Below, in pieces: positions 6,053 to 32,729 of a stretch of DNA of 49,956 bases. The notes under the pieces were generated by a model. The model saw only the letters and a program-made list of their open reading frames with translations, was not told where the DNA came from and made no database searches. Position 1 is the stretch's first letter. The number at the start of each line of letters is the position of its first letter. Source of the stretch: a virus. The translations under genes were made by a program, and so were the position numbers. Location: the IMG/VR virus record IMGVR_UViG_3300035698_021428; one strand, written 5' to 3'.

Positions 6053-6057
6053 AATTA

Positions 6058-7005: not shown

Positions 7006-7031
7006 TTTTTCAGTAGCATTGGTGTTAACGA

Positions 7032-8705: not shown

Positions 8706-8826
8706 ATTTTACTCCGTAAGAATTAACTATGTATATATGCTTGTTTTTCGATAAAAATCCTTCATTGCAAAATCTACTCCCCAAGTGTGGCGGTAAAAAA
8801 TTAGTGTCATACATTTTTGGTATCAT

Positions 8827-9297: not shown

Positions 9298-9304
9298 GTA
9301 TTCG

Positions 9305-9336
9305 CTGGTGCTGGACTAATCTTCAGCACCAGTTTT
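9305..9336 (+). terminator. rho-independent terminator
   Basis: Stem ctggtgctg/cagcaccag (9 bp), then TTTT. Confidence 0.75.
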
Positions 9337-9369
9337 CAAGTGCAATAAAAATATGATAAACTTGAGTGT

Positions 9370-9912: not shown

Positions 9913-10286
9913 ATAATGAAGAAGAATTGCTCAAAGCAGCTTTAGATCGTTGCGAGATCACTCATGAAGAGTTATCTTCTCACAAGATCTTTTATGAGCA
10001 GATATTCATGGGAGCAGGAGCTAGCCATAACTCTAAAGATAAAAATCGGTTCAATATGGATTTTTCAGGACAGGACTGCGCTTTACTTTACGAAAAAGTG
10101 AGAATAGCTTTATCTATGCTTTCTGGAGTCCAGCAATTAGAAACAAGCATATGTTCTTCACAAATGGAACCCGATGAGCACCTAGAAACGATTGAGTGCG
10201 AAACAGGACAATTAGAAATGATTGTTCAAGAAATAGCTATGGCTCTTACTGGAAAAGAAATAGGATTCAAAAATGAAAACGACTGA
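9909..10286 (+). CDS. hypothetical protein (125 aa)
   Basis: ORF track. Translationally coupled to both neighbours. Confidence 0.55.
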   Translation: MNNEEELLKAALDRCEITHEELSSHKIFYEQIFMGAGASHNSKDKNRFNMDFSGQDCALLYEKVRIALSMLSGVQQLETSICSSQMEPDEHLETIECETGQLEMIVQEIAMALTGKEIGFKNEND

Positions 10287-10701
10287 CAAAGTAGAACTTG
10301 TTGTTGGGGATTCTTATTGGTATGTCCAACTAGGACAAAGAATGACTGATGGGTCTTGGTTCTCTTCGCATCCAGTATATATATTTCCAGCAAAATATCT
10401 CGGACCAGAAGACAAGATGCACAAATTCGAACTAACATGCGCAATTGAAGGTAAAACTGAGCTTCTAGGCGGCTCTGATGAATATACAAGAATCAATGGT
10501 AGGATCTATGCTAATCAAATAAACGCTTGTAAAAGATCTGTGACTGTGAACAAAAAAGGTCGCAGGTTTCAGATGAGCAGAGTAAGAGAATTCAACAACG
10601 TTATTGCTGGACTCAAAACCACAATAGGAAAAATCGAAAAGCCTACCAGAAAAATGTGTTGTTGGCATTGTCACGGAACAGGCAAGCAAAATTACACCTG
10701 A
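10273..10701 (+). CDS. hypothetical protein (142 aa) with C-terminal CxxC pair
   Basis: ORF track. 'CCWHCHGTGKQ' at the C-terminus. Ends TGA TAA. Confidence 0.55.
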   Translation: MKTTDKVELVVGDSYWYVQLGQRMTDGSWFSSHPVYIFPAKYLGPEDKMHKFELTCAIEGKTELLGGSDEYTRINGRIYANQINACKRSVTVNKKGRRFQMSRVREFNNVIAGLKTTIGKIEKPTRKMCCWHCHGTGKQNYT

Positions 10702-11158
10702 TAAAAGAGCGTGGAGCATTGAGCGCGCATCCACTGAACGCCGAATCACTGAGCGACATAGTAGTCTTTTTGACTACATGAGCAAGTGAAGCTCTAAAGC
10801 GAACAAGGCGTTGTAGCAGATCCAAACGGACTGTAAAATCTCAAACCTTGTATGTCCCAACCATCGCAGCCCTGTCAGCCATCGAGCATGACAAGGTTAC
10901 TTGAAGGGTAGAGGCATGGATCTGCGATAAGCAGGTTGATGATTGGGAGAAAGTATACATGTTGGTAGTATGGAACCTTTCTGCGCTTAGTTGATCAGTG
11001 AAACAGATCTATAAAAATCTAACCAGCGCATTTACTTCGGGCCGCAGGACCGAAGTATGTGCCGAGCGAAGCGAGGCTACACAGAGAAAGACGTATATAA
11101 TATCTCAAAAATGACGAAGAAGTAATAGTGAGATCTTTTCAGCAACAGATCTTTAGAT
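10702..11158 (+). other. ~457-nt non-coding region rich in local hairpins, directly upstream of tRNA-His/Gln; candidate large structured RNA
   Basis: TAA/TGA stops are frequent in all frames. Hairpins include gtagtc-ttttt-gactac, acttcgg-gccgcagga-ccgaagt and agatct-tttcagcaac-agatct. Family not recognised. Confidence 0.25.
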
Positions 11159-11241
11159 GGTGGCTATGGCAGATTGGTAATGCACCTGGTTGTGGACCAG
11201 GAACCGTAAGGTTTATGCGGGTTCAAATCCCGTTAGTCACC
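11159..11241 (+). tRNA. tRNA-His (GUG) with encoded G-1 and an unusual 15-nt variable arm
   Basis: 5' g-gtggcta resembles E. coli tRNA-His GGUGGCUA. Anticodon arm cctgg-ttGTGga-ccagg. Variable arm aacc-gtaa-ggtt-tat. T arm gcggg-ttcaaat-cccgt. C73. Confidence 0.7.
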
Positions 11242-11249
11242 CTTTAGTT

Positions 11250-11321
11250 TGGGCTTTAGTGTAATCGGTAGCACAACAGTTTTTGATACTGTCAGTCTGG
11301 GTTCAAGTCCCAGTTGCCCAA
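11250..11321 (+). tRNA. tRNA-Gln (UUG)
   Basis: U1:A72. Anticodon arm acagt-ttTTGat-actgt, the same loop as E. coli tRNA-Gln. T arm ctggg-ttcaagt-cccag. Two U-U mismatches at the base of the acceptor stem. Confidence 0.7.
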
Positions 11322-11336
11322 TTTGAAAGGAAATAT

Positions 11337-11648
11337 ATGTCATCGCAATTTCCATCTAAAGTAAGTCAACTACTTCAAAATTTTGATGGTTGGCTTATCG
11401 GTTCTGCAGCTAATCCTGATAATCAAAACCCTAGAGACTTTGATATTCTCATCCCTTTTCATATGTGGCATAAAGCTTGTCTCTCAATACCTGAAAATGC
11501 CATTCCAAATAGCTTTGGCGGATGGAAGTTTATTGATAATAATGTTGAAATAGATATGTGGCCAGGCGATTTATCTTATCTTGCAGCAAGACCTAGATTT
11601 AAATACGCTTACCACTTAGCTAGCGATACCAGAATAAGTAAAATATAA
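11337..11648 (+). CDS. small nucleotidyltransferase-fold (Pol-beta-like) protein, 103 aa
   Basis: The ATG at 11337 follows the tRNA. 'WLIGSAANPDNQNPRDFDILI' fits the hG[GS]...D.D minimal NTase pattern. Confidence 0.5.
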   Translation: MSSQFPSKVSQLLQNFDGWLIGSAANPDNQNPRDFDILIPFHMWHKACLSIPENAIPNSFGGWKFIDNNVEIDMWPGDLSYLAARPRFKYAYHLASDTRISKI

Positions 11649-11672
11649 TCAAATACTTGAAAGGAAAAACAA

Positions 11673-12300
11673 ATGAGAATCGAGAAACAAGCAAAAGGCG
11701 TTAGACTACTCATGAACGACGAGGCTAAGAACCGGAGGTTGGTTCATCAATGCTTGCGTTGAAGCATCAGAAGCCGCTGGCTTCAATGAAATACTGCTTC
11801 CGCTCATTGAGCCAGAAAGTATCTATGAAGAAAAAGCGGGCACTGAGATTCTTAATCAAATGTACACCTTCAAAGACAAGGCAGGAAGAAACCTCTGTCT
11901 AAGACCCGAAGGTACTGCTACTGTCCAACTTGTTGCGCAGAAAATGCGGAACATGAAAGATGTGAAGCTATGGTATGAAACTCGTTGTTGGCGATACGAG
12001 CAGCCGCAGGCTGGGAGATACCGAGAATTCACTCAGTTCGGCGTAGAGTGGCTGAACCCCCGAAACCCTTCAGAGGCCCGAGAAAGTCTAGAAACGCTCG
12101 CCAGAGCGATTGTAGAGCGGCTGGGAGTTGATTACGAGTGGAACGGAACTGCCAAACGAGGATTGGCGTACTATATTGAAGATGGTTTTGAACTAAGCGT
12201 TCCGTCGCTTGTCGCTCAGAAGCAGGTGATTGGCGGTGGGGCTTATACTGAAGGCATCGGATTCGCCGTTGGCGTAGATCGTATTGCGTTGGCAATGTGA
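11673..12300 (+). CDS. histidyl-tRNA synthetase-like class II core (HisRS/HisZ-like, ~210 aa, no anticodon-binding domain), interrupted by a +1 frameshift near 11735-11745; possible pseudogene
   Basis: RBS plus ATG 11673 gives 29 codons, then TGA at 11760. The +1 frame continues with 'FINACVEASEAAGFNEILLPLIEP', 'LRPEGTA', motif 2 'RYEQPQAGRYREFTQFGVE', 'GGGAY' and motif 3 'GFAVGVDRIALAM'. Confidence 0.7.
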
Positions 12301-12374
12301 AAGGCATCCCGTGAAGGTGCGAATCTTTTCGGGATTTTAGACGATATGCTCTCTGCCTACAATAGGAGATTTTC

Positions 12375-12608
12375 ATGCCAGAGCTAACTGAAAAACGAAA
12401 ACGAATACTTGCCCTTGTTGAAACAATAACAGACGAACAAGCAATAGAATTGGTTTCTGAAGAAGAACTTGTTCCTAAGCTTCCTGTATTTCTACCTGCA
12501 AAAATAAGCAAAGAAAAGCTTCTCGAATTAGCTTTGGATATTAGAAAAACATGGCAGCAAAAAAGATCGTTGAAAAAGACGAGGATCTTAAGTGATCGAA
12601 GAATTTAA
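12375..12608 (+). CDS. hypothetical protein (77 aa)
   Basis: ORF track. AGGAG RBS upstream. Confidence 0.55.
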   Translation: MPELTEKRKRILALVETITDEQAIELVSEEELVPKLPVFLPAKISKEKLLELALDIRKTWQQKRSLKKTRILSDRRI

Positions 12609-12783
12609 GCTGTGCAAAGATTGCGGACGAAAAATAGCATACAAAGACGGAACTCCGATGGAGGGAGATTTTTGTACTGATGTCTGCGAATGGCATTACA
12701 ATGTTCCCCAGGAACAAAAAGATAAAATCAAAGAAATGCTTAAGAAAATAAAAGAAGAAGACAACAGAGAGAGCAGGTTCTAA
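12592..12783 (+). CDS. small zinc-ribbon-like protein (63 aa)
   Basis: GTG start. 'CKDCGRK...CTDVCEWH'. Confidence 0.45.
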   Translation: MIEEFKLCKDCGRKIAYKDGTPMEGDFCTDVCEWHYNVPQEQKDKIKEMLKKIKEEDNRESRF

Positions 12784-12788
12784 CCAGG

Positions 12789-13070
12789 ATGACGACAAAG
12801 AGACCTCTTACGACTCGGGAGAAGAATAGGGCTTTAGCTTCTTTATGTAAGAAAAAAGGATGCAAAGACTGCGGGTCTATGAAAAACCTGACTTTTCATC
12901 ACAAAGATCCAAGTCAAAAAATCATGAACATCAGCGACGGGGTGAGAAAAATGGGGGAATCTCGTTTTAGAAAAGAAATAAAGAAATGCGAAGTAGTATG
13001 TCGGGAGTGTCATGATAGGCTTCATGCTTTTGGGACTAGGTTGAATATATCAGTTAAGAGCATAACATGA
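12789..13070 (+). CDS. HNH endonuclease-like protein (93 aa)
   Basis: 'CKDCGS...LTFHHKDPSQK...CEVVCRECHDRLH'. Confidence 0.75.
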   Translation: MTTKRPLTTREKNRALASLCKKKGCKDCGSMKNLTFHHKDPSQKIMNISDGVRKMGESRFRKEIKKCEVVCRECHDRLHAFGTRLNISVKSIT

Positions 13071-13279
13071 CTGAAAATGAGTTAAAATACGGCAAAAAAT
13101 TAAACAGACTTCTTCATAAAAAAGCAATGGGATATGAGGGCTCTATGATTTTTTCTGAAGGAGTATTATACGGATGGAAGAATGCAGGTTTAATAACTGC
13201 TGCTGAAAGCAGTAGGCTTGTCAAGGCATTTTGTACTGAAAATGATGAAATCGATATGACTTACGAATATGGAAGATAA
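13067..13279 (+). CDS. hypothetical protein (70 aa)
   Basis: ATGA-coupled to the HNH gene. The last 9 nt overlap the tRNA-Ser 5' end. Confidence 0.5.
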   Translation: MTENELKYGKKLNRLLHKKAMGYEGSMIFSEGVLYGWKNAGLITAAESSRLVKAFCTENDEIDMTYEYGR

Positions 13280-13355
13280 TCCCGAACGGTGACGGGCACT
13301 ACTTGGAAAGTAGTTGGAGGTTAATAGCCTTGCGGTTCGATCCCGCTGTCTTCCT
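13271..13355 (+). tRNA. tRNA-Ser (GGA), long variable arm, best folded as 8-bp acceptor / 4-bp T stem
   Basis: Acceptor ggaagata/tgtcttcc. D stem cccg/cggg. Anticodon arm actac-ttGGAaa-gtagt. Variable arm tggaggttaatagcctt. T arm gcgg-ttcgatc-ccgc. Confidence 0.8.
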
Positions 13356-13358
13356 TTT

Positions 13359-13751
13359 ATGAACGAAGAAGAAAAAGAAAAACAAGAGTTGTTAGAAATA
13401 CTCAGAAGTAGCATGAAAGATATAGAGGATAGAAAGGCCTATGTCAAAGCCAATATAGATAAGTTTAGGCTACCTGAACTTGAATATGTAGAGCATGAGG
13501 ATTTACCTGGTATGTATTGGGAAGTATGCGCAATCCCGGTAGATTCCGATCCTCTTAATAAATATGAAGGTCGAGAAGGTAAGCCTTATATTCGTCTTGA
13601 GTGGGGCTGGGATGCGGGTATGTCTGAAGAAGATTTAGCCAAGATGTCTGATGATAGCCCCAGAGGAAAAGAATGGGTGTATTTGGATCTTAGATCGGTT
13701 AAAGGATTGAGAGATAAGCTGACAAAACTTATAGATAAATACGGCGAATAA
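13359..13751 (+). CDS. hypothetical acidic protein (130 aa)
   Basis: The ATG at 13359 lies just after the tRNA. The track ORF 13314 start lies inside the tRNA. Confidence 0.6.
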   Translation: MNEEEKEKQELLEILRSSMKDIEDRKAYVKANIDKFRLPELEYVEHEDLPGMYWEVCAIPVDSDPLNKYEGREGKPYIRLEWGWDAGMSEEDLAKMSDDSPRGKEWVYLDLRSVKGLRDKLTKLIDKYGE

Positions 13752-13780
13752 ATGATGACACCAGATGAAGCAATATTAAC

Positions 13781-13865
13781 GGAAAGTAATCCAGAACGGT
13801 GACTGGCGCTCATTGCTAATGAGTTGGAGGTTAATAGCCTTGGAGTTCAACCCTCCTGCTTTCCT
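13781..13865 (+). tRNA. tRNA-Ser (GCU), same 8/4-type fold and same variable arm
   Basis: Acceptor ggaaagta/tgctttcc. Anticodon arm gctca-ttGCTaa-tgagt. Variable arm tggaggttaatagcctt. T arm ggag-ttcaacc-ctcc. Confidence 0.8.
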
Positions 13866-13882
13866 TTTAGATAGGAATAAAA

Positions 13883-14059
13883 ATGGAATACGGTGCAGTT
13901 GAACGAAATAAAAACGGTAACGATCTTGTTGCAATCTCTGTAATCGTAGATGAAACCCAGGCGTATGAATTAAAGACTATACCTGAGTACAATGAACTCC
14001 TCAAGCAGGGTAATCTTGCCAAAAAGTGCAAAAATAAAAGCAACTGGATAAAAAAGTGA
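13883..14059 (+). CDS. hypothetical protein (58 aa; below the ORF-track size cut-off)
   Basis: ATG 13883 to TGA 14057-14059 (MEYGAVERNKNGNDLVAISVIVDETQAYELK...). Preferred over the minus ORF 13867..14106. Confidence 0.4.
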   Translation: MEYGAVERNKNGNDLVAISVIVDETQAYELKTIPEYNELLKQGNLAKKCKNKSNWIKK

Positions 14060-14065
14060 GTAATT

Positions 14066-14149
14066 GGAAGAGCTTCCGATGGAGCGGTAGTTTGTTTTGA
14101 AAACAAATGTGGTGTAAAAGCCTTGCAGGTTCGAGTCCTGTCTCATCCG
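14066..14149 (+). tRNA. tRNA-Ser (UGA), long variable arm, 7/5 fold with one A-A acceptor mismatch
   Basis: Acceptor ggaagag/ctcatcc. Anticodon arm tttgt-ttTGAaa-acaaa. T arm gcagg-ttcgagt-cctgt. Discriminator G. Confidence 0.7.
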
Positions 14150-14155
14150 TTTATT

Positions 14156-18578: not shown

Positions 18579-19538
18579 ATGACCGATCTGGTGACGTTTT
18601 CAAACTTTTTCATGATTTCTGGTTTTCTTTTGGCGGCTTATTCTGTAGTAGCCAACGATAGCGTTCAAACGCTTGGAACATTTATGGCCTCCAATAGCCA
18701 TAGGCGATGGTGGGTTCTTTGGTTGTCAGCGTCAGCAGTTCTTGTTGCTACGCTATTATTTAGCTGGTTTGTATATGATGGAGACATAAGTCAGGGGAGA
18801 TTAGACAGCATTCCATATGACGGCAATTTTCAATGGTACCATGCAGTAGCGCCTCTGATTCTTGTTTTCATGACTAGATTTGGGATACCTGTTTCTACAA
18901 CTTTTTTGGTTATCAGCGTATTTGCTAGTTCAGTTGTAATCGAAAAGGTTATATTAAAATCTGTGATGGGATATGGAGTTGCGGCGATAACGGCATATAC
19001 TCTATGGACAGTTTTGAGCAGATTCTTAGACGAACATGATAAAGTCGATCCCAAGAACCGCAATAGATGGTTTATAGCTCAATGGCTAACCACTGGCTTT
19101 TTGTGGTCTACCTGGTTGAGTCATGATATGGCAAACATCGCTGTCTACATGCCTCGGCAACTAAGCTTTCCATTGCTTCTAGTCGTCTTTGTTGTTCTTA
19201 TTAGCGGTTTGGCTATGACCTTCAAGCTTCGAGGCGGCAGGATCCAGAAAATCGTTCTCGACAAAACAGGCACTCGATATGCTAGAAGCGCGACCATTAT
19301 CGATTTCGTCTTTGCATGCATTCTCTTAGTTTTCAAAGAATGGTCCACGATACCAATGTCAACGACCTGGGTCTTCGTTGGTCTGCTTTGCGGTCGAGAA
19401 TTAGCGATTCATGCATCAGTAAAATTCGAGAGTACGAAAGCCGTATTCCCCATTATTGCCAAAGATTTTGCCAAGGTTCTTGTTGGGCTTGGCGTATCGC
19501 TAGTTCTTGTATGGATCATTCAAGGGACAAAAATATAG
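18579..19538 (+). CDS. polytopic membrane protein (319 aa), tentatively PiT/PHO4-like transporter
   Basis: About 9 hydrophobic segments. 'VVANDSVQTLGTF' and 'SHDMANIAVY' weakly resemble the duplicated GANDVAN signature of PiT phosphate transporters. Confidence 0.6.
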   Translation: MTDLVTFSNFFMISGFLLAAYSVVANDSVQTLGTFMASNSHRRWWVLWLSASAVLVATLLFSWFVYDGDISQGRLDSIPYDGNFQWYHAVAPLILVFMTRFGIPVSTTFLVISVFASSVVIEKVILKSVMGYGVAAITAYTLWTVLSRFLDEHDKVDPKNRNRWFIAQWLTTGFLWSTWLSHDMANIAVYMPRQLSFPLLLVVFVVLISGLAMTFKLRGGRIQKIVLDKTGTRYARSATIIDFVFACILLVFKEWSTIPMSTTWVFVGLLCGRELAIHASVKFESTKAVFPIIAKDFAKVLVGLGVSLVLVWIIQGTKI

Positions 19539-19945: not shown

Positions 19946-19966
19946 TTCAAATCAAATCAAATGACA

Positions 19967-19998
19967 ACGCCGTTCTTTTCGTGAGGACGGCGTTTTCT
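19967..19998 (+). terminator. rho-independent terminator
   Basis: Stem aacgccgt/acggcgtt, then TTTT. Confidence 0.75.
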
Positions 19999-20069
19999 AT
20001 ACCCGAAGGCTTTTACCTTGTTTTGGTCGAAGAACTTGTAGAGTCATTTTATAAAATCTGGTAAAATAT

Positions 20070-21881
20070 ATGATTATTGAACGTCAGTTTGAAAGCGCAT
20101 TTTATCATGCTCCCATTGGATTCGCTATCGTCTCTTTCGAAGGATTGTTTTTACGAGTCAATAAGGCTCTCGAAGATCTTCTTGGCTACTCAGAAGAAGA
20201 ACTACTACGAATAACTTTCTATGACATAACTCATCCTGATGAACAAATACTCGGTAGGGAATGTATCGCAGAACTTATGAGCGGCGAGAAAGATTTTTGC
20301 CAGTTCGAAAAACGGTACATCCACAAAAACGGTCAATCAATATGGTGCCTGCTCAACACTTCCGTTGTTCGCAACGAGCGGAATGAACCTGTACATCTAG
20401 TTTCTCAAATACTAAACATACACGAGAAAAAAGAAGTTGATCTAAAACTACATAGAGAAAAACAACAGACTCAAAAAATACTTGATGCTATGGACTCTTT
20501 TATCTGGCATAAAGATACCAATAACAATATTCTTAGAACCAATAAAAAGGTAGCAGACAGTCTTGGCCTTAGAAGATCTGATATTGAAGGTCATTGTTCA
20601 ACTGAGTTTTACCCTATGGAATCGAAAAAACCGATATTTGGAATAACAGAACCAGTCTCTACCAAGAATGGCAAGAAATGGGTTTCAACTGACAAGATTC
20701 CAATGTTTGATGATGATGGAGAAGTTACAGGCATACTCGTTGTTTCAACTGATATAACCGAGATTAAACAACAAGAGCAAAAGCTTGAAGAGTATAGCAG
20801 TAGGCTTGAGGTTGCTCTCGATGCTGGCAATATAGGTATTTGGATATGGTATCCTAAAGAAAATCGTCTTGAATGGGATGATCGGATGTTCGATCTTTAT
20901 GGTAGAAAGAAAGATGATTTCAACGGAACTGTTGAAGACTGGTCTCGTTCTTTGGTTGAAGAAGACAGAGACAATGCCTGTGATAACATAGATCAATCGT
21001 TAGAGAAGGGCGTCCCGTTTATTAGCGAGTTTAGAATTCTAAAAAACGGAGAAATTCGGCACATTACAGCTTATGCGCTTCTTGAGTTAGATGACGAAGG
21101 CGAAATTGAAAGCATGATTGGCGCAAATTACGACATAACCGATATGAAGCGGACTGAGGCCAATCTAAGGAGATCCAATGAGGATCTTGAAAGGTTCGCC
21201 TATGCTGCGTCGCACGACCTTAGAGAGCCTCTTAGAACGATCAAGGGTTTTGCTGACCTGTTAGATTCTAAGTACAGCGACGGTTTTGATGAGACTGCTG
21301 AAAAGTACATGGCCTTCATAAAGCAAGGTTGTCTAAAAATGGAAACCCTCATTAACAGCCTGCTTGCTTATTCCAGAGTTGACAGAGATATGGAGTCTGA
21401 CGAAGTAGATGTCGATATGAATGCCACTGTCAGGACAGTATGCGAATCTTTGATGGCAAAAATAGCAGAGAATGATGCAGACATAGAATGGGATAAAAAT
21501 TTACCAGTAATACAGTCAAATTCTAATCTGATGTTTCAGCTATTGCTAAATCTTATAGGCAATGCGGTGAAGTTTAAAAGCGAAGACAGACGATGCAAGG
21601 TATGTATTACTTGCGAAAACTATGATACTGATGACGAGTTTTTAAAGTTTTGTGTCAGAGATAATGGTATAGGTATCGAGGAAAAATTCCAAGATCGTAT
21701 ATTTGAAATCTTTCAACGATTACATGACAGGTCTATGGAAGGGACAGGCGTTGGTTTGGCTCTTTGCAAGAAAATAGTAGAGAATTTTAATGGAAAGATA
21801 TGGGTGGAATCTGAGTATGGAAAAGGATCGTTATTCTGTTTTACACTCCCTAGGGGAAAGACTATCAATAAGAATAACTAA
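20070..21881 (+). CDS. cytoplasmic multi-PAS sensor histidine kinase (603 aa)
   Basis: Three PAS-like repeats. H-box 'FAYAASHDLREPLRTIKGF'. N box 'LLLNLIGNAVKF'. G1 'VRDNGIGIE'. G2 'GTGVGLALCKKIV'. No TM segment. Confidence 0.9.
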   Translation: MIIERQFESAFYHAPIGFAIVSFEGLFLRVNKALEDLLGYSEEELLRITFYDITHPDEQILGRECIAELMSGEKDFCQFEKRYIHKNGQSIWCLLNTSVVRNERNEPVHLVSQILNIHEKKEVDLKLHREKQQTQKILDAMDSFIWHKDTNNNILRTNKKVADSLGLRRSDIEGHCSTEFYPMESKKPIFGITEPVSTKNGKKWVSTDKIPMFDDDGEVTGILVVSTDITEIKQQEQKLEEYSSRLEVALDAGNIGIWIWYPKENRLEWDDRMFDLYGRKKDDFNGTVEDWSRSLVEEDRDNACDNIDQSLEKGVPFISEFRILKNGEIRHITAYALLELDDEGEIESMIGANYDITDMKRTEANLRRSNEDLERFAYAASHDLREPLRTIKGFADLLDSKYSDGFDETAEKYMAFIKQGCLKMETLINSLLAYSRVDRDMESDEVDVDMNATVRTVCESLMAKIAENDADIEWDKNLPVIQSNSNLMFQLLLNLIGNAVKFKSEDRRCKVCITCENYDTDDEFLKFCVRDNGIGIEEKFQDRIFEIFQRLHDRSMEGTGVGLALCKKIVENFNGKIWVESEYGKGSLFCFTLPRGKTINKNN

Positions 21882-22302
21882 AATACTTCTAGTTGAAGAT
21901 AACCCTGCGGATATAGAACTAACCAAAGAAGCTCTGAAATGCAAAACATGTCAACCTAGCTTACATGTTGTTACTGATGGAGAAAAAGCTATACAGTTTC
22001 TCCTAAACGAGGGAGATTACAAGGATTCTCCTAGACCTGATATTATTTTTTTGGATCTCAACCTTCCAAAAATGTGCGGAAAAGAGGTTCTTTCTATCAT
22101 AAAATCGAACGATGAATTGAAAAGTATACCTGTTATCGTTTTAACAACTTCTGAAAATGAGATTGACATAAATCAGACGTACCAAATGCATGCTAATTGC
22201 TATATTAGAAAACCTGTTGATTTTGAGTCTTTCAGAGAAGCTATACATTCAACAAAGAGTTTTTGGTTTACAGTTGCTAAACTACCGGAAAGCGAGAAGT
22301 AG
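21817..22302 (+). CDS. stand-alone CheY-like response-regulator receiver
   Basis: 'ILLVEDNPADIELTKEAL...PDIIFLDLNLPKMCG...PVIVLTTS...HANCYIRKPVDF'. The start is ATG 21817 or 21790, overlapping the kinase 3' end. Confidence 0.85.
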   Translation: MEKDRYSVLHSLGERLSIRITKILLVEDNPADIELTKEALKCKTCQPSLHVVTDGEKAIQFLLNEGDYKDSPRPDIIFLDLNLPKMCGKEVLSIIKSNDELKSIPVIVLTTSENEIDINQTYQMHANCYIRKPVDFESFREAIHSTKSFWFTVAKLPESEK

Positions 22303-22304
22303 CA

Positions 22305-22745
22305 ATGGACACGACTAGCGTTCTTCTTCTTGATGATGATCATGCATTTGCAAATTTGTTCAAAGAACACCTAACTGATCACGCCAAGGATCACTCAAAT
22401 ATAGAGCTTACTCACGTTGATTCGCTAAAAGCTATCGAGCTAGAGCAGCCTTTTGATATTTATTTTATTGATCACAGGCTCTACGGAAGACCTGCTTCCA
22501 TTGAAATTGTAGAAAGATTAAAAAACGCCGGTTTCGGTGGAAAGATTTTTGTTGTTTCTAAATATGGTGATTTTGATCTTCTCAAAGAACTCATGAAGCT
22601 GGGAATAGACGGGTTCATTGATAAAGATGAGATAAATTACGAAGAACTTGTCAGATTCATTGATAGTTTAAATGCTACTAAGTCTCTGCTTCGTAACCTG
22701 AACAATAAATTCGAAGAGCTAAAAAAGAAGCCTACAGACAGGTGA
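22305..22745 (+). CDS. second receiver-domain-like protein (146 aa), divergent
   Basis: 'VLLLDDDHAFANLFKEHL...FDIYFIDHRL...FVVSKYGD'. Starts 2 nt after the previous stop. Confidence 0.65.
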   Translation: MDTTSVLLLDDDHAFANLFKEHLTDHAKDHSNIELTHVDSLKAIELEQPFDIYFIDHRLYGRPASIEIVERLKNAGFGGKIFVVSKYGDFDLLKELMKLGIDGFIDKDEINYEELVRFIDSLNATKSLLRNLNNKFEELKKKPTDR

Positions 22746-22770: not shown

Positions 22771-22971
22771 ATGGTTACACTCACATTGGCAGGCATCGTT
22801 TCAAGCGGCTTCGGCCTTCTTTGGTTGATTCTCATCATTGTTGCTGTTCTCAGCGTCATTGGTTCTAAATCACACTCAGGATTGGCGAAAATTCTTTGAA
22901 TCGCATTTATTATTCTATTCCCATTGATCGGCATGATTTGCTGGGCAATCTTTGGACTGAATAAGGGTTGA
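22771..22971 (+). CDS. small two-TM PLDc_N-like (cardiolipin synthase N-terminal-like) membrane protein with an in-frame TGA at 22897-22899
   Basis: '...LSVIGSKSHSGLAKIL[TGA]IAFIILFPLIGMICWAIFGLNKG' matches the family pattern '..K.lW.llil.lP.lG...Y..fG'. The TGA falls on the conserved Trp. Confidence 0.5.
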
Positions 22972-23036: not shown

Positions 23037-23366
23037 ATGTGTAGAGCATCGCGCCGCCGAGAGACTCAAAGAGTACAGAAACGCAGGCACAACCTTATCG
23101 CTTCGATTCACGGGCGAGAGGGATATATCAGTTGGAGCGGAGTGTACATAGAAACTCTCTGGTGGCTGAATGAAAGAAACATTGGACAACTAAAGAACGA
23201 TTTACCAACAGAAATGATTTCGCCTTTTGGGAGCGAGCGGGATTATTGGCTGCGCGGAAAAAGAGCGAAAGCTGCTCGGTCCAATCTCTCTTTTGCAGAA
23301 GAACTTGAAAAACTCGGCTTCAGTCACAATATTAGTTTTAACATAGACGGTTCAACCAAACTTTGA
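23037..23366 (+). CDS. hypothetical basic protein (109 aa)
   Basis: AGGAGA RBS plus ATG. Confidence 0.55.
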   Translation: MCRASRRRETQRVQKRRHNLIASIHGREGYISWSGVYIETLWWLNERNIGQLKNDLPTEMISPFGSERDYWLRGKRAKAARSNLSFAEELEKLGFSHNISFNIDGSTKL

Positions 23367-23436: not shown

Positions 23437-26127
23437 ATGCAAGACAATGATTCCGGCGCAATCCGAGGATCATCAGGCGATCTTTTGATCCCTGAAGGTT
23501 CATATGCTCATTTTTAAGGACTAACAACTGGCGCAATTTCGACCAAGGTTGGGCCTGCAAGCGTTTCGCAATCGGGGCAAGAACGTCCTGTTGCGTTCGA
23601 TCCAGCAAGGCGACAATTCATTGAAGTTAGCCGAGAAAGTTCGGTCAAACTCAATGTTATCGCTGATGAAACCAGTTATGTTATTCTTTCAAATCCGTGC
23701 ATTGCAGTCGCAGACGGCGATGACCAGCTTATTTTTCCAGGATCTTCGGACAAGATTCCCAATCAAGGTCTAGAGAGCGGTCGAAAAGTTGTGGTTCATG
23801 GACCTGTCGAATTTTCGCTTTGGCCTGGACAGACTGCAGAAGTTGTCCCGGGTCATGCTCTTCGCTCAAATGAATATCTTGAACTTGTTGTTTATGATGC
23901 TGATGAAGCAAAAGCCAACTGGGAATCAGCCTCCGTTGTTGAGACCAAGAAAACTGGCGGCGATAAAGAAGATAAAGATGATACGCAGGTTACGTCTACT
24001 GCCCCTGCTGATCTTCTTATGGGACAACGATTGGTTGTCAAGGGAACTGAGGTTTCATTCTATCGTCCTCCAACTGGTATACAGGTTGTTCAGAACGAAG
24101 ACAATATCTTTATTCGACAAGCTGTTTCCCTTGAATTACTTGAATACTGTATTCTTATCGACGAAAATGGCAACAAAAGGTATGAGAAGGGACCAGCAGT
24201 TGTTCTTCCTCGTCCATCTGAACGATTTGAAAAAAGCTCTAGAGGCAATAGAAAATTTAGAGCCATTGAGCTTCAAGACCAGGCAGGCGTTCATATCAAA
24301 GCGCTCAAGACCTACCAGGATGACGACGGAAAAGATCGCAAAGCTGGTGATGAATTCTTCTTGACGGGCAAAGATCGTCCTATCTACTACCCTCGCGAAG
24401 AAGAAGCCGTTATTCCTTATAGCGATGGCGAAAAGATTCACTTCGCTGTTGCGGTTCCCAAGGGGGAAGGCCGCTACGTTATGAATAAGACCACCGGTGA
24501 GATCGCAACGATCATCGGCCCCAAGATGCTTCTTTGCGATCCGACTAATGAAGTCATCGTTCGTCGCATCCTTACTGACAGACAAAGTAATGATTGGTAT
24601 CCTGGTAATGATAACTCTAGGCAATACAATCGCAATCTTCGAGAGATTCAGGAAGCTGCAGGAACGGCTGGTGATTTTGTTGACGATACATCAACACGGC
24701 AGGCAGCAACCAGGGGGCTTCATTCGCTGCGAGAAAAAGGCAATCCAAGAGTAGGCGGAGCTTCGTTCTCAAGTATGTCCGCTTCCGCCGGATCGGAACG
24801 AGGTTTTGAAAGCTTCGAACAAGCTGGTTCAGCAATGATGGGAGAACTAGATCGGCCATCAAGCTATACAGAACCCAAAAGCATTACTCTTGATACACGT
24901 TTTGCAGGAGTTCCTGGTATTGAGCTTTGGACAGGCTACACCGTTATGGTCGTTGACAGAGAAGGAAACCGCCGAATCGTCAGCGGTCCAACCAATATTC
25001 TGCTCAATTATGACGAGTCATTAGAAATCATAGAACTTTCTACCGGCAAACCAAAATCAACAAAAGGATTGATTCGCACAGTATATCTTCGCAGAGATAA
25101 TAATAAGGTTTCCGATTATGTTGAAGTTGAGACAAAAGACCATGTGAAAGTACAAGTAAAACTGTCATTCCTGGTCAATTTTGTTGAAGACAATCCTAAT
25201 GACGATCAGGATGATACCGATTATCAAGAGCGTTGGTTTGCTAGCGAAAACTATGTCAAGCTTCTTTGCGATCATGTTCGCTCGATTCTTAAGGGCGAAG
25301 CTAAAAAGCACGATATCAATAACTTTTATATCAACTCAACATCTATCATCAGAGATATCATTCTTGGTAATCGTCAGGAAGATGGCAGAACAGGTATGTT
25401 CTTTGAACATAATGGTATGCATGTTATCGATGTTGAGGTTCTTGGAACAGAAATTCTTGATCACAGCATTGCTTCGCTACTTACTGGCTCTCAGCGAGAA
25501 GCAGTTGAATCAAGTATTCGTCTTCAGTCTGCCGAAAGAACGCTTAATGTAACTGAGCAAATGGAAGCGATGTCTCGTAAAGAAGCAGTTGCTAAGAATG
25601 AGACCAAGAAGCACGCACACGATCTAACGATAGAAAGCATTGGAAGAACTCTGAAGGAGTCCCTAGCAGACATATCTTCAGAACAAGACAAGTCCGTTCA
25701 TAGGCTTACTGCTCGTACTGCCGAAGCTGAAGCTACTAAAATGGCAAACGTTATTGAGGCCGAAGCTGCGGTCGCAGGAAGCGAGATTGAGCGAGAAGAT
25801 CAGAAACTCGATCATGAACAGAAAATCTTAGAAGCAGAAGAAATAGCTAGGCTTGACAAGGAAGCGATTGAAACCGAAGTCAAGGCCACAGTTGATAAGC
25901 TCAAGGCCCTTGAAGGTTCGGGGTTGACCGACGTTCTTGCTACGCTTGGTCGAGAAGACTTCTTGACCCGTATAGCTGAATCCAGCAATCTTGAACGATT
26001 GATTGGCGGAGCTAGCGTCCAAGATACTTTGACCGGAATTTTCGGCGTTGAGTCGCCTATTGCTAAGGCGTTCGTTGCTATCAAGGCAGGAAAGCCGCTT
26101 GCTCAATCTTTGCTCAATAGCGACTAG
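23437..26127 (+). CDS. major vault protein (MVP) homolog: vault repeats, SPFH-like shoulder and cap-helix (~896 codons) with one in-frame TAA at 23515-23517
   Basis: GGAGA RBS plus ATG 23437. 'LLIPEGSYAHF*GLTTGAISTKVGP..ERPVAF' vs human MVP '[25 protein letters not shown]..ERVLF'. 'GDEFFLTGKDRPIYYPREEEAVI' vs '[21 protein letters not shown]'. 'YVMNKTTGEIATIIGPKMLL' vs '[20 protein letters not shown]'. E/A/K-rich C-terminal helix. The track ORF 23791 starts at an internal GTG. Confidence 0.8.
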
Positions 26128-26302: not shown

Positions 26303-26655
26303 GGGGGCGATATGGAATCGCTTCAGTAGGGTAGGAAGGATTGTTGCGAGCCGGGGAACCATGCTTAGGCCCCGTAAAAAAGTATGGAATAATTAGTTGC
26401 CAACAGCAACCCACTCCGCATCGCTGCTTGACAGCGGTGCCTGCAAGTCCTGAACGCCGATACGGGATACGCAGAAGATTTTCGGCTGGTCGTCTGAACA
26501 ACTGTTTCAACCAACAGACGATGAGATAAAGGATGAGACCGCTCCCTGTCGCAGACTGTCGCTGGTCGGCTAGGGGCTAAGATAAAACATCGACTACGCT
26601 CGTAGAAACGCCCAACAAACTACTGAACACGGCGGTTCGAATCCGCCCGCCTCCA
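26303..26655 (+). ncRNA. ssrA: tmRNA (SsrA), tag ANSNPLRIAA
   Basis: 5' GGGGGCGAUAUGGAAUCGC.. pairs with 3' ..GGCGGUUCGAAUCCGCCCGCCUCCA (G3:U70, T arm). The tag ORF GCC AAC AGC AAC CCA CTC CGC ATC GCT GCT TGA lies at 26399-26431. Confidence 0.85.
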
Positions 26656-26664
26656 TTTAGAAAG

Positions 26665-28564: not shown

Positions 28565-28831
28565 TATATTACTTCCTGTAAGTTACAGAAGCCTAGCTGA
28601 ATACCGCCTCGAATAGGGGTTGTAGACAGTTTTTATTGGCGTGGAATAGTAGGTAGATGCCTTTTGGCTCGCCGATACATCTGAATCACTAGTAATAGCT
28701 AGCTTATTTTCAATATGGCTAGCAGGTGAATCAAATTCGACTAAACTTGTCGAACCATGAATCGTCGAACAGGGCTTGCGGCGGAGCCGCTGTTCGTATA
28801 CAAACCGACGCCGCAACAGGAGTGCGAAAGC

Positions 28832-30064
28832 ATGCGACTCAATAAGCTCAGTACGAGCATGACAATCATTGGAATGCTGTCTGCTGCATCTGCCTTTGCG
28901 CAGGATGGTGCCCAGGTCACGAATAGCGAGGACCATCAACGTATGATGTCATCTGAAATAATGAATGACGCAGTATCCCGCAGCGGTACACAATCTGGTC
29001 ATAATGGAAACGGATTCTTTTTCTCAGATCCCGATAGAGACTTCACCCTTAACATCGATGGACAGCTTCAGTTTCGCTACTATGCGAACTTTACTGACAT
29101 GGGAAAAACGGACACAACAACTGGTTTTGAGACGGCTCGAACAAAATTGAGATTTAGCGGCGATGTCAACACCTTCGATTATACAGTTGAAGGTGTTTTT
29201 GCTCCGTCAGGCGGCGGGTTTATGCTGCAAGACGCATTCTTCGGTCACTCTCTAGGTAGCAATGCCAACGTTCAGGTTGGTCAGTTTACGCTACCATTCA
29301 TGCGAGAACAGAACGTTGACAGTAGATATCAGCTTGCTGTTGAACGATCAGTTACCGATGCCGTATTTAATCAGGGCAGAGGCCAGGGTTTGCAGTTGAC
29401 GTTTACTCCTGTGGATATGGATAATGTTCGCTTTACAGCGGCATTCAGCGATGGGTTTAGCACGGCTAACACAGCGTACACATCTTCAATGGAAGCTGAT
29501 TACGCAATTACTGGTCGTTTAGATTGGCTCGCCGCAGGCGAATGGTCTCAGTTCGACGACTTTACTTCTCAACAAGATGAAGATTTTGGTTTCCTTGTAG
29601 GCCTTGCTGGTCACCTGCAGGAAGGCGGCGAAACTGGCGGAACTATGGACACTAAAATGTTCAGTTATACTGCAGATGCTAGCGTTGAGAATGGAGGGTT
29701 CAGTGCCTTTGTTTCAGGCGTTACTCGTTCTACCGAAACTACGGCAACTGAGTTCGATGATTTCGGGCTGGTCGCTCAAAGCGGTTTTAGGGTTACTGAA
29801 AAAGATGAACTATTCGCTCGATGGGATGCTGTCTACGCTGATAGCGATCGTGGTCTTACGAATGATGAGTTCAACTATCTGACCGCTGGCTACAATAGGT
29901 ATCTTGCTGGACACTCAGCTAAGTTCACAGCCGATGTTGTTTATGCTGTTGATGATACTGCTGGTATCGGAAGTCTGACCTCATCCCTTGGCGGACTTGG
30001 AATAATGAGCAGCATGGAAAGCGAAGATGTAGCCTTACGAGTACAGCTACAGCTTCTTTTCTGA
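28832..30064 (+). CDS. outer-membrane beta-barrel porin (porin O/P-like), 410 aa
   Basis: Signal peptide 'MRLNKLSTSMTIIGMLSAASAFA|QDG'. Alternating beta-strand pattern 'FTLNIDGQLQFRYYANF'. C-terminal '...LRVQLQLLF' with terminal Phe. Confidence 0.75.
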   Translation: MRLNKLSTSMTIIGMLSAASAFAQDGAQVTNSEDHQRMMSSEIMNDAVSRSGTQSGHNGNGFFFSDPDRDFTLNIDGQLQFRYYANFTDMGKTDTTTGFETARTKLRFSGDVNTFDYTVEGVFAPSGGGFMLQDAFFGHSLGSNANVQVGQFTLPFMREQNVDSRYQLAVERSVTDAVFNQGRGQGLQLTFTPVDMDNVRFTAAFSDGFSTANTAYTSSMEADYAITGRLDWLAAGEWSQFDDFTSQQDEDFGFLVGLAGHLQEGGETGGTMDTKMFSYTADASVENGGFSAFVSGVTRSTETTATEFDDFGLVAQSGFRVTEKDELFARWDAVYADSDRGLTNDEFNYLTAGYNRYLAGHSAKFTADVVYAVDDTAGIGSLTSSLGGLGIMSSMESEDVALRVQLQLLF

Positions 30065-31079: not shown

Positions 31080-32729
31080 ATGGCAACCAAACTTGGAAAA
31101 GGCGAGTATCCCAGCGATCATTCGCCAGAAGACTTTAAATGCTTTGGCCCTCCTGCTCAGGAAGACGGTCAGTTTGACGGCATGATGATGGCTGACATGG
31201 GCTGCTTCAAGCAAGATGGTACAGATTCCAACAAATTCTACCATGGCGCAGTTGTTCAATCCAAAAAAGATGATAGCTGGTATGCCTACTATGAATGGGG
31301 CAGAACTGGGAAAGGTTCTTCTGATAAGCAATTCGTTTGTTGTTCGTCGAAAGAAGAAGCTGAACAAGTATTCTGCAAGCAGATGCACTCCAAAAATGAC
31401 AAGCGAGGCGAATGGGTCAAGATAGGCAGTAAAGACATTCTAAGAGCGAAGACAGGCAAAGACTGCTACCTTATCCGTCCGCTCGCAAAGCGATCTCATG
31501 GCCTTCCAGACGCTCAGACAATCGTCCATGACGATAGCGGCAAAGCTGGCAGCGCCGTCGCTAAGAAAACAACCAAAAAGACCGGAAAGAAAACCAGCAA
31601 AAAGATTGCTAAGAAAAAATCAAACGTTGATCCAAAGACTCTTAGTCTTATGAAGGATATGAACGTTGCAGCGGTTGAATTTACTCGCTCGCAGGTTGAT
31701 AGCGATGCAGTCCCAACTCAAGGCGTTATCGATGAAGGCAGAGATGTTCTTATCGAAGCGGAAAAAAGAGTTAAGAAAATTGGATCAAAGCTTGAAGAAC
31801 AAATTAGCGATAGAGACCTTCGAGATCTAACGTATCATCTCTATTCTCGAATCGGGAAGCCAAAGCCTCTCAATACGCTTGAATCTGCCTGGATTCTTTC
31901 TCAAGACAACATCATGCGTTGGCGAATGGACCTTGATACATTTGAGCAGGCATTATATGCTCTTGACCTAGGCATTGGCAGCGATACTCAGAATACCTTT
32001 GATCCGTTCAATGGCATGAATATTGAGATGATTCATCTCGACCCGACTAAAACGGCTGAAGGTCAATTTATTCACAATTGGATGCCTGGCGCAACGAAAA
32101 ACGTCCACGGGCACGTTGGCGACATGAGTATTGTCAACGCATGGGGCGTTCGTCAAACTGATTTTGCACCAAAATTTGAAGCAACTGCTGCAAAGATTGG
32201 TAATCGCAATTTCACCCCATCTGACAAACCTATCAAGCAGCCCCGAAAACGATCTGATATCTCGCCAGAAATGGCTAAACTATTCGATCAAGCAAATGTC
32301 AATCTCTTATTCCATGGAACAAGATCTGTCAATGTTCCTGGCATTCTTCGCACAGGGCTAAGGCTCCCCAGAGAGCTTGTTGGAGTTGTCCTTACTGGCG
32401 CAATGTTTGGACCCGGTATCTATTGGGCCGATGATTGGAAAAAATCAGACGGTTACACTTCTCGACCAGGAACTTATTGGTCAAGAGGCGGGGGACAGGT
32501 CAAAGGTCGCAAGGCTTTTATGTTTGTTGCCAATGTTGCTCTTGGCAATCCTCATATTGCTCGCGGTCCTCAAGGATATACTGCTCCGCCGAAAGGTTGC
32601 GATTGTGTTGCAGGTCTTGCTAATAAGAGCAGCGTAGCCAACAACGAATGGATTGTTTACGACAGTATGCAAAATTCTCTTACATATCTTATTGAATACG
32701 AAGTTTCAGGCAGCAGCCGTCGCTGGTAA
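31080..32729 (+). CDS. poly(ADP-ribose) polymerase-like protein: WGR, Lys-rich linker, helical regulatory domain and PARP catalytic domain (549 aa)
   Basis: WGR 'FYHGAVVQSKKDDSWYAYYEWGRTGKG'. Linker 'AKKTTKKTGKKTSKKIAKKKS'. Catalytic H-Y-E triad: 'LLFHGTRSVNVPGIL', 'FGPGIYWADDW' and 'NNEWIVYDSMQNSLTYLIEYEV' (PARP1: '[22 protein letters not shown]'). Confidence 0.9.
   Translation: MATKLGKGEYPSDHSPEDFKCFGPPAQEDGQFDGMMMADMGCFKQDGTDSNKFYHGAVVQSKKDDSWYAYYEWGRTGKGSSDKQFVCCSSKEEAEQVFCKQMHSKNDKRGEWVKIGSKDILRAKTGKDCYLIRPLAKRSHGLPDAQTIVHDDSGKAGSAVAKKTTKKTGKKTSKKIAKKKSNVDPKTLSLMKDMNVAAVEFTRSQVDSDAVPTQGVIDEGRDVLIEAEKRVKKIGSKLEEQISDRDLRDLTYHLYSRIGKPKPLNTLESAWILSQDNIMRWRMDLDTFEQALYALDLGIGSDTQNTFDPFNGMNIEMIHLDPTKTAEGQFIHNWMPGATKNVHGHVGDMSIVNAWGVRQTDFAPKFEATAAKIGNRNFTPSDKPIKQPRKRSDISPEMAKLFDQANVNLLFHGTRSVNVPGILRTGLRLPRELVGVVLTGAMFGPGIYWADDWKKSDGYTSRPGTYWSRGGGQVKGRKAFMFVANVALGNPHIARGPQGYTAPPKGCDCVAGLANKSSVANNEWIVYDSMQNSLTYLIEYEVSGSSRRW

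Follow-up and report, generated by a model that had tools for sequence, protein, structure and literature searches.

Do very large phages monitor the physiology of their hosts with sensors of their own, and if so, what do they adjust in response? This testable question is raised by a conserved three-gene cassette, a histidine kinase gene followed by two receiver genes, in the viral DNA of IMG/VR record IMGVR_UViG_3300035698_021428. The whole stretch of 49,956 nucleotides (nt) is termed the window here, and positions are counted from its first letter. Phages are known to eavesdrop by means of arbitrium peptides or quorum-sensing receptors; two-component signalling, the main sensory system of bacteria, lies outside the current picture of phage biology. 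The biochemistry of the cassette is that of an ordinary two-component system and it is the viral setting that is unusual. The reading that we favour, with some reserve, is that the cassette is a working virus-encoded His-Asp phosphotransfer system which is expressed in the infected cell. Viruses that carry it are probably able to sense for themselves what state the infected cell is in.

In the list of open reading frames (ORFs), the kinase and the two receivers are tightly packed on the plus strand. Together with the domains of the kinase, for which amino acid (aa) positions are also given, they are arranged as follows.

20070..21881, plus strand: predicted soluble sensor histidine kinase, 603 aa, PAS-PAS-PAS-HisKA-HATPase_c (Pfam, alignments, hydropathy, PDB search)
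20085..20420, plus strand: PAS1, aa 6-117 (Pfam PAS, PAS_3 and PAS_9; alignments)
20484..20762, plus strand: PAS2, aa 139-231 (best PAS_4 stretch in Pfam; alignment)
20805..21149, plus strand: PAS3, aa 246-360 (second PAS_3 and third PAS_4 stretches; alignment to the orthologue P0001)
21186..21383, plus strand: HisKA/DHp domain, aa 373-438, with the phospho-accepting His382 at 21213-21215 (Pfam; alignments)
21525..21854, plus strand: HATPase_c domain, aa 486-595, with N, G1, F and G2 boxes (Pfam; motif coordinates; conservation)
21868..22302 (ORF 21790-22302), plus strand: receiver 1, Rcp1/RcpA-type single-domain response regulator (Pfam, PDB matches, CheY alignment)
22305..22745, plus strand: receiver 2, divergent single-domain receiver, 146 aa (Pfam, residues, AlphaFold, Foldseek)

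PAS, HisKA, HATPase_c and Response_reg were all found in the cassette by Pfam profiles. In the kinase, HisKA is matched with E=1e-11 (45.1 bits against a cutoff of 26.9) and HATPase_c with E=2.5e-26 (92.7 bits), and the PAS-family matches (PAS_3 in two stretches, PAS_4 in three, PAS and PAS_9) correspond to three PAS domains. The H-box, FAYAASHDLREPL, contains His382, which is invariant in both kinase alignments. The N-box (LNLIGNAVKF), G1 box (DNGIGI), F-box and G2 box (GTGVGLA) were all located and align with those of homologues. The best match to the kinase core in the PDB is 8f71 (E=4e-43), followed by HK853 and the bacteriophytochrome kinases. No transmembrane segment is predicted, and because the highest Kyte-Doolittle mean over 19 residues, found inside PAS1, reaches just 1.38, the kinase is predicted to be soluble. 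Pfam, motifs and hydropathy thus agree with the preliminary description of the locus as a complete module whose cytoplasmic triple-PAS kinase has intact H, N, G1 and G2 boxes and no transmembrane segment. As the profile matches are strong and recur in orthologues, chance is excluded as their source.

PAS1 is the sole sensor domain common to all relatives, the number of PAS domains per lineage being three, two or one. It is 60% identical between the window and P0002, a one-PAS orthologue of 360 aa, and an alignment of five phage kinases shows THP..., KRYI.K and W92 to be invariant in it. PAS3 is also found in P0001, an orthologue of 499 aa on a contig of 502 kilobases (kb); PAS2 is confined to the kinase of the window and is missing from both P0001 and P0002 in the alignment.

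Redox, light and metabolic state had all been proposed as inputs, and these are guesses. The NCRF core of the LOV flavin-cysteine motif GxNCRFLQ was found nowhere in the kinase by a motif search, and the nearest PAS structures to PAS1 in the PDB are weak matches of ARNT/HIF type, LOV structures being weak at E ~3e-4. LOV/flavin light sensing was therefore rejected. The weak resemblance is to ligand-free ARNT/HIF-type PAS domains and says nothing about a ligand. Pfam found no GAF, PHY or bilin-binding module in the kinase, its sensor domains being of the PAS family only, and nothing in the kinase analysis points to the heme pocket that had also been suggested.

Receiver 1 matches Response_reg with E=6.7e-20 (71.8 bits against a cutoff of 30.2). 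Its best PDB matches, each over ~136-140 residues, are 5te9 (2.3e-42), 1i3c (3.9e-37) and 1k68 (6.9e-36). The first of these is an uncharacterised homologue, and the matches to Rcp1, RcpA, RcpB and 5te9 run over the full length at E=1e-23 to 2e-42. The acidic pair (E and D), the phospho-acceptor Asp (in FLDLN), the Thr (in LTTS) and the Lys (in IRKP) align with D12, D13, D57, T87 and K109 of CheY. Read from 21868, the gene has a 14-nt overlap with the kinase stop, and in the two closest orthologues the overlap between the ATG of receiver 1 and the kinase stop is 14 or 8 nt. The stand-alone CheY/Rcp1-like receiver overlapping the kinase stop that had been described is thus upheld by the PDB matches to Rcp1 and RcpA, with the qualification that its start codon reads ATA.

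Receiver 2 starts 2 nt past the stop of receiver 1. It had been described as divergent, and this is borne out by its Pfam match, active-site residues and predicted fold. Response_reg is matched narrowly above the cutoff of 30.2 (E=1.4e-8, 35.3 bits), and the active site (DDD10-12, D56, S85 and K107) is intact. The AlphaFold model, made with an 11-sequence family alignment, has a predicted local distance difference test score (pLDDT) of 86.4 and shows a (beta-alpha)5 receiver in which alpha5 runs on to residue 141; the best 50 matches listed by Foldseek against the PDB are all response-regulator/receiver structures, with probability 1.00. The C-terminal extension of alpha5 is ~30 residues long and has a heptad-like pattern, with hydrophobic residues read from the sequence at a 3-4 spacing (L114, F117, L121, T124, L128, L131, F135 and L138). 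This spacing points to a coiled-coil dimer, or else to a docking helix, joined to the alpha4-beta5-alpha5 switch face. In keeping with the earlier claim that the receivers have no DNA-binding output domain, Pfam, NCBIfam and the receiver 2 model revealed no output or DNA-binding domain in either protein.

A single-sequence, word-indexed search of 5.8 billion proteins with receiver 2 returned one fragment, and a family profile returned 12 clusters. An exhaustive profile search of 1.84 billion representatives gave seven matches at E<1e-30 and about 50 full-length proteins of ~140 aa, followed by generic receivers. A motif-limited scan of 185,579 species genomes yielded one weak match, and the matches listed for the profile against metagenomes are weak generic receivers only. 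Judged by these searches, receiver 2 is a rare subfamily and one that is apparently virus-restricted.

Relatives of the cassette fall into a close clade, comprising L001 (502 kb), L011/L027 (IMG/VR, 498.6 kb) and L002-L004, and a deeper clade comprising L007 and L023-L026. The best kinase relative, P0001, is 52% identical and lies on a circular-looking ENA contig of 502,461 base pairs (bp), L001, on which the order of kinase, 144-aa receiver, 140-aa receiver and vault-like gene matches that of the window. A genome of 498,568 bp, listed as viral in IMG/VR, is 98% identical to the 502-kb contig and its triad is collinear. A third lineage, represented by 10.8-kb contigs (ENA, JGI), carries a 360-aa kinase, both receivers and the same 109-aa downstream ORF, and its contigs continue with the porin, the M43 peptidase and further genes of the window at 28-42 kb. 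Collinearity extends over 16.5-28.5 kb of the window with L001 and L011 and over 20-42 kb with L002/L003, so that at least 25 kb is collinear with three independent assemblies (ENA, JGI and IMG/VR).

In the deeper clade, on contigs of 31.9 kb, 77 kb and 149 kb, a 468-aa two-PAS kinase is accompanied by a receiver 1 of 141-142 aa and a receiver 2 of 139-140 aa. This triad is ~28-40% identical to that of the window, receiver 2 being 28-31% identical and having the same C-terminal helix, and it is flanked by ORFans, PHROG families and a homing endonuclease. The phage-like locus L008 (25 kb) has the same layout with a different second receiver. The overlap of kinase and receiver 1 and the close spacing of the receivers recur in relatives.

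The residues on which phosphotransfer would depend are conserved. The kinase H-box (SH[DE]) and G2 box are present in 8/8 triads, as are the acidic pair, Asp, Thr/Ser and Lys of both receivers, an apparent Lys-to-Asn change in receiver 1 of L007 being an alignment slip beside a Lys. Kinases of both the close and the deeper clade have conserved N, G1 and F boxes; in the two most distant triads, L008 and L006, the N-box was not picked up by simple motif patterns, nor, in L006, was the G1-box. The concern that catalytic His or Asp residues might be lost on alignment can thus be set aside, as they align properly. Counts of synonymous and nonsynonymous differences between L001 and L011, and the ratio of nonsynonymous to synonymous change (pN/pS), are as follows.

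Kinase: 97 synonymous, 22 nonsynonymous, pN/pS 0.06
Receiver 1: 10 synonymous, 0 nonsynonymous, pN/pS 0
Receiver 2: 7 synonymous, 3 nonsynonymous, pN/pS 0.12

By this measure the triad is under purifying selection in the related giant-phage genomes. Two cellular kinase homologues that were inspected are orphan kinases with no receiver adjoining, and the triad is therefore a feature of phage cassettes. Among named matches, kinase homologues belong to Desulfobacterota, Gemmatimonadota, Bacteroidota, Archaea and Firmicutes, and no host or donor stands out clearly. No near-identical DNA was found in the phage collection, and single-protein queries of IMG/VR with the kinase or the vault-like protein gave no match. 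A separate observation concerns the kinase gene of L001 and L011, which is ~12% divergent at nt 400-1300 (L001 10401-11300) between flanks that differ by 1-2%. The divergent tract spans the second PAS domain, the DHp domain and the start of the ATPase domain, its changes are mostly synonymous, and its pattern suggests a recombination tract.

How might such a cassette work? Phosphotransfer, the receiver or receivers served, the cue, the targets and the effect on infection are what we infer. In its anatomy the cassette is a canonical phosphotransfer system. The soluble kinase would dimerise via its DHp helices, and its PAS domains, above all PAS1, would respond to a cue within the cell, which would determine how fast His382 is autophosphorylated. 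From there the phosphoryl group would pass to the conserved Asp of the translationally coupled receiver 1, and probably to that of receiver 2 too, in a branched arrangement of one kinase and two receivers. The kinase and receiver 1 are taken as a cognate pair because both fall in the Cph1-Rcp1/bacteriophytochrome subclass and, in all relatives, their genes are translationally coupled. Since its gene always comes next, receiver 2 is most likely the second substrate of that kinase. As neither receiver has an output domain, both would act through phosphorylation-dependent protein-protein contacts with phage or host proteins, receiver 1 as an Rcp1-like dimer and receiver 2 via its extended alpha5/coiled-coil tail, and one of them may reset the other by serving as a phosphate sink. 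That a self-contained circuit might tune infection to redox, light or metabolic state, as envisaged in the preliminary description, is a reasonable but hypothetical functional reading.

Several observations weigh against this picture. Nothing in the window can be recognised as an effector, an Hpt protein or a DNA-binding partner, which leaves the pathway without a visible end, and because no output or target can be identified the circuit may not be self-contained. The phosphatase motif of HisKA kinases is E/DxxT/N; in the window the residue at His+4 is Glu (HDLRE), not Thr or Asn, which is typical of Cph1-type kinases. This suggests that the phosphatase activity of the kinase is weak, and would make a phosphate sink plausible. 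In P0121, the closest receiver 2 homologue (a fragment on a 522-bp ENA contig, 58% identical), Glu stands in place of the acceptor Asp (FVEHKL vs FIDHRL), hinting that phosphorylation is not always needed. Finally, codon 21868 of receiver 1 is ATA in the window, where the aligned codon in orthologues is an ATG start. The nearest in-frame ATGs, at 21817 and 21790, are 51 and 78 nt upstream of 21868, within the kinase gene. Two genes downstream of the receivers contain in-frame stops at conserved positions: a 66-codon ORF has a TGA at 22897-22899 that aligns with Trp in the L002 orthologue, and the vault-like gene has a TAA at 23515-23517 where L001 and the huge phage LR756500 have Gln. Given the ATA and these stops, the copy of the cassette in the window could be impaired, or the sequence could be locally error-prone.

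Comparison with known systems helps to place the cassette. It resembles the Cph1-Rcp1 and bacteriophytochrome pairs (1i3c/1jlk, 1k68, 1k66 and Deinococcus BphR, 6xvu) in its receiver 1 (E=1e-23 to 1e-37), which has the NCY(I/L)xKP and C-terminal FW segments of Rcp1-type regulators, in a kinase core that matches their kinase modules, and in having a receiver gene directly after the kinase gene. Its H-box, FAYxxSHDLxEPL, is typical of the Cph1/bacteriophytochrome kinase subclass. It differs, however, in its sensor of three plain PAS domains with no GAF or PHY, in its second, unrelated receiver, and in its phage-like genome. On sequence grounds, the cassette would work like a Cph1-Rcp1 pair without being a phytochrome system, because GAF and PHY are missing from the kinase.

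One kinase with two receivers has precedents in CheA with CheY1/CheY2, where there is a phosphate sink, and in relay carriers of the Spo0F type. As in these designs, one kinase gene in the window is followed by two receivers without outputs, and Spo0F is itself among the best PDB sequence matches of receiver 2 (E=3e-4 to 3e-3), with an aromatic residue at T+2 in both. Unlike the CheA and Spo0F systems, there is no Hpt/Spo0B-like phosphotransferase, CheA-type P1 domain or motor target near the cassette.

Two-component genes on viral genomes are not unprecedented, examples being phoR/phoB, the phage LR756501, several IMG/VR contigs and a Microcoleus phage. The last of these, My-WqHQDG (OR578706.1, Caudoviricetes, 163 kb), has the same three-gene layout (WOL31350-WOL31352), in which a 545-aa PAS-HisKA-HATPase_c protein, annotated as hypothetical, overlaps a 138-aa receiver that is followed by a 171-aa receiver. 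Identity to the window is ~30-34%, however, and the second receiver is unrelated to that of the window (BLASTP E=76) and groups with that of L008. No publication discussing this record was found. Among huge phages, LR756501 (735 kb) encodes a 737-aa PAS-HisKA-HATPase-REC hybrid kinase; among IMG/VR contigs of 211-408 kb, L029/L030 carry an 1186-aa hybrid kinase with three receiver domains and a second kinase, and L033 a receiver and a REC-kinase. These kinases are fused, whereas the window has a split kinase and two free receivers, and kinase identity is ~22-29%. Phaeoviruses such as EsV-1 also encode hybrid histidine kinases. Histidine kinases and two-component signalling go unmentioned as a phage function in the jumbo- and huge-phage reviews and surveys that were searched, and phrases such as 'phage-encoded histidine kinase' were not found in the literature searched.

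Histidine kinase and response-regulator genes of the phoR/phoB type have been reported as 'auxiliary' genes on phage contigs from soil viromes (PMC10987575). The window likewise has phosphate-acquisition genes, and it was because of its PHO4-like, porin O/P and PhoD genes that a PhoR/PhoB identity was considered. This was rejected, as the NCBIfam equivalog cutoffs are unmet and there is neither a membrane anchor nor a winged helix. The kinase scores 147.4 bits against PhoR (TIGR02966, cutoff 334.2) and 195 against PnpS (cutoff 400), and the receiver 46.9 bits against the PhoB model (cutoff 296.2), in the receiver part only. Pfam found no Trans_reg_C domain in the receivers, and among the NCBIfam equivalog models of characterised kinases none reached its cutoff.

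Receiver 2 also bears some likeness to the cREC domains of jumbo phages: both are divergent, receiver-like and found in large phages, and in the window a PARP-type ADP-ribosyltransferase lies 8 kb downstream. By published definition, cREC is never associated with histidine kinases and is tied to NAD+/ADP-ribose enzymes (PMC7824862, PMC9503650). In every relative, receiver 2 is directly preceded by a kinase and a receiver, and a cREC identity was rejected; in contrast to cREC, it retains the Thr/Ser and Lys that phospho-accepting receivers have.

If the cassette does perform phosphotransfer, its reach within the infected cell may be framed in different ways. One possibility, which we hold only tentatively, is an autonomous pathway, carried by a lineage of ~500-kb phages and by a deeper clade of large phages, in which the PAS kinase reads the state of the host and signals, via the phage-restricted receiver 2 together with receiver 1, to phage targets. 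Such targets would include, for example, the timing of late genes or the product of the next conserved gene downstream, G4.

23037..23366, plus strand: G4, 109-aa ORF with an arginine-rich N-terminus, MCRASRRRETQRVQKRRHNLI (homologues at the same position in relatives)

Homologues of G4 (41-45% identity) lie directly downstream of receiver 2 in L001, L011, L002 and L004, and the arginine-rich stretch is conserved in L001 and L002. We take its N-terminus to resemble the RNA-binding arginine-rich motif of lambdoid N proteins. G4 is missing from the deeper clade and has no match in Pfam, NCBIfam or PADLOC; it is a candidate output partner, whose membership in the system is uncertain. It was rejected as an Hpt protein, there being no conserved His across orthologues and no family match. 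If true, an autonomous pathway would be an undescribed class of phage decision circuit, standing beside arbitrium and phage-borne quorum-sensing receptors, and would allow the virus to make state-dependent decisions without relying on host regulators. The interest of the cassette lies in its conservation across huge-phage lineages, in the phage-restricted receiver 2, a compact subfamily in which to seek new kinds of receiver output, and in experimental access. It is small, soluble and easily expressed, and phosphotransfer assays and partner searches would be straightforward.

Somewhat less probable is that the cassette is not a closed circuit and is directed at the host network, the kinase acting on host regulators and/or the receivers serving as decoys or sinks for host kinases. 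Draining host kinases of the Cph1/Rcp1 subclass would silence or rewire host responses at takeover. The receivers have no outputs, as sinks or decoys would not, and host kinases could plausibly engage in cross-talk with receiver 1, since it is a very ordinary representative of a subclass widespread in cells; a phage-borne phoR has moreover been proposed to act on host PhoB (PMC10987575). Nevertheless, the kinase and receivers stay together and translationally coupled in every relative, which is the usual signature of a cognate pair. In addition, the receiver 2 subfamily is almost absent from cellular species genomes in the motif-limited scan and is thus no mimic of a common host protein, and no host partner can be named.

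It must also be asked whether the genome is that of a phage. We consider it unlikely that the cassette is an ordinary cellular or plasmid operon, in which case the window and its ~500-kb relatives would have been wrongly classed as viral and would represent a reduced bacterial genome or a giant extrachromosomal element. Such a view draws on the finding that neither the 50-kb window nor the flanks examined contain a hallmark gene of virions (capsid, portal, terminase or tail), and on cell-like genes for two aminoacyl-tRNA synthetases, a porin, PhoD, a pilin-like protein and glycosyltransferases. However, the 498.6-kb relative is listed as viral in IMG/VR, no ribosomal or core housekeeping genes are present in the window, and the vault-like gene matches only curated huge phages in the phage collection, namely LR756500 (462 kb) and LR756501/LR756503 (735 kb). 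The remaining gene content also fits huge phages. ARAGORN found ten dispersed transfer RNA (tRNA) genes, the spans of its matches, transfer-messenger RNA (tmRNA) included, lying at 2026-14150 and 26303-26658 of the window, and the tmRNA (Rfam, 129.6 bits) encodes the tag ANSNPLRIAA. Two amber-suppressor tRNAs with a CUA anticodon, at 42649-42720 and 45505-45577 on the plus strand, are labelled Pyl by ARAGORN and confirmed as tRNAs by Rfam. The two aminoacyl-tRNA synthetases are joined by HNH endonucleases, many ORFans and PHROG-only families. Dispersed tRNAs, tmRNA, suppressor tRNAs and an ORFan-rich profile are hallmarks of huge phages (PMC7162821). With its closest syntenic relatives at 502,461 bp and 498,568 bp, the window looks like part of a ~500-kb huge bacteriophage, and its genome is very probably that of a phage. 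The preliminary description of a phage-like genome is thereby sustained by indirect evidence: the load of tRNA, tmRNA and synthetase genes, the relative listed in IMG/VR and the vault-like gene.

Equally doubtful is the idea that the cassette, although functional in the lineage, is a decaying passenger that is being lost from the genome of the window. The transitions ATG to ATA, TGG to TGA and CAA to TAA (at 21868, 22897 and 23515) cluster within 1.7 kb and disrupt the start of receiver 1, the 66-codon ORF and the vault-like gene, respectively; no other in-frame stops occur in the 16-42 kb stretch with homologues. Against this, all three ORFs of the cassette are full length with every catalytic residue intact, receiver 1 has ATGs in frame upstream, and bacteria permit ATA as a start codon, albeit a weak one. 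Errors in the reads or in the consensus could explain the changes; other possible causes of the cluster are strain variation, local decay and deamination. Recoding of stop codons as an influence on the ORF calls was rejected, as making any one stop sense lengthens ORFs equally on both strands. ORFs in the window end in TGA, TAA and TAG, and neither of the two in-frame stops at conserved positions is TAG. Likewise, no in-frame TAG was seen in the conserved genes checked and there is no signal of global recoding in the window; the suppressor tRNAs may act on recoded genes in other parts of the genome.

That the locus is an assembly chimera, or that host DNA contaminates it at a junction, is refuted by synteny and deserves almost no weight, since the gene order is collinear with L001, L011 and L002/L003 from independent data sets, and there is no compositional break, the GC content of the cassette at third codon positions lying within the range of neighbouring genes and its overall GC content (0.34-0.39) slightly below the window mean.

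For the favoured reading, in which the cassette is expressed during infection, the sequence upstream of the kinase is of interest.

19966..19994, plus strand: terminator-like element, a 12-bp GC-rich hairpin followed by TTTTCTAT (read from the sequence; low confidence)

The hairpin and T-run follow an upstream ORF of 110 aa, and a 75-nt AT-rich spacer comes next, before the cassette. The RNA fold of 19946-20069 has a predicted energy of -31.6 kcal/mol (z=-3.07); the element is absent from the list produced by the consensus scan. The hairpin and T-run separate the cassette from the upstream ORF, and the cassette probably has its own promoter, which the 75-nt spacer would contain. A search upstream for a sigma-70 promoter gave no significant match, matches being no more frequent than in shuffled sequence. 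In relatives the start of the kinase overlaps the end of the upstream gene by 4 nt, where the window instead has the hairpin and spacer. That upstream gene encodes 970 aa in L002/L004 (L004 1709-4621) and 258 aa in L001 (9228-10004), and has no Pfam match. On the other side of the cassette, the 66-codon ORF (22771-22971, plus strand) directly follows receiver 2 and would form two hydrophobic helices, its second half being PLDc_N-like by eye.

Beyond the cassette, Rfam adds a tRNA-like match of 101 nt at 7453-7553, possibly intron-bearing, and at the gathering score misses the Arg tRNA (2026-2113) and both Ser tRNAs. Other cell-like genes, with positions that include 649-1803, 7887-8705 and 46815-47693, encode a class II tRNA synthetase of the Asp/Asn/Lys type, a HisRS-like protein, a pilin-like protein that has a methylation motif at its N-terminus, a SpoU methylase, glycosyltransferases and a radical SAM enzyme. 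A phosphate-acquisition theme is seen at 18579-19538, 28757-30064 and 35848-38157, comprising a PHO4-like membrane protein (a weak Pfam match below the cutoff, 83% identical in L004), a phosphate-selective porin O/P and a PhoD-like phosphatase with Fn3-associated domains. Domains of the His_Phos_1, Metallophos and RelA/SpoT-type HD_4 families are likewise encoded in the window. No link between the phosphate-acquisition genes and the kinase could be shown.

The vault-like gene, at 23437-26127 on the plus strand, encodes a homologue of the major vault protein (MVP), with Pfam matches to Vault, Vault_3 and MVP_shoulder and a match to rat/human MVP in the PDB (E=2e-25 over aa 385-720); the protein is 56% identical in the 502-kb relative. 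The ORF finder placed its start at the GTG at 23791, and homology runs from the ATG at 23437, upstream of the in-frame TAA, which could be a nonsense mutation, an error or a site of read-through. No match to an anti-phage defence system was found by PADLOC for the cassette, G4, the vault-like protein or the PARP, and a defence function was rejected. A literature search found no paper linking vault proteins to huge phages. The PARP gene itself, encoding WGR and PARP catalytic domains, is located at 31080-32729 on the plus strand, 5 kb downstream of the vault-like gene, and LR756500 has a PARP-like stretch at a distance of 7 kb from its MVP gene. The combination of vault-like gene and PARP recalls, by analogy, the eukaryotic pairing of MVP and vPARP, and the vault-like gene may surprise more than the two-component cassette.

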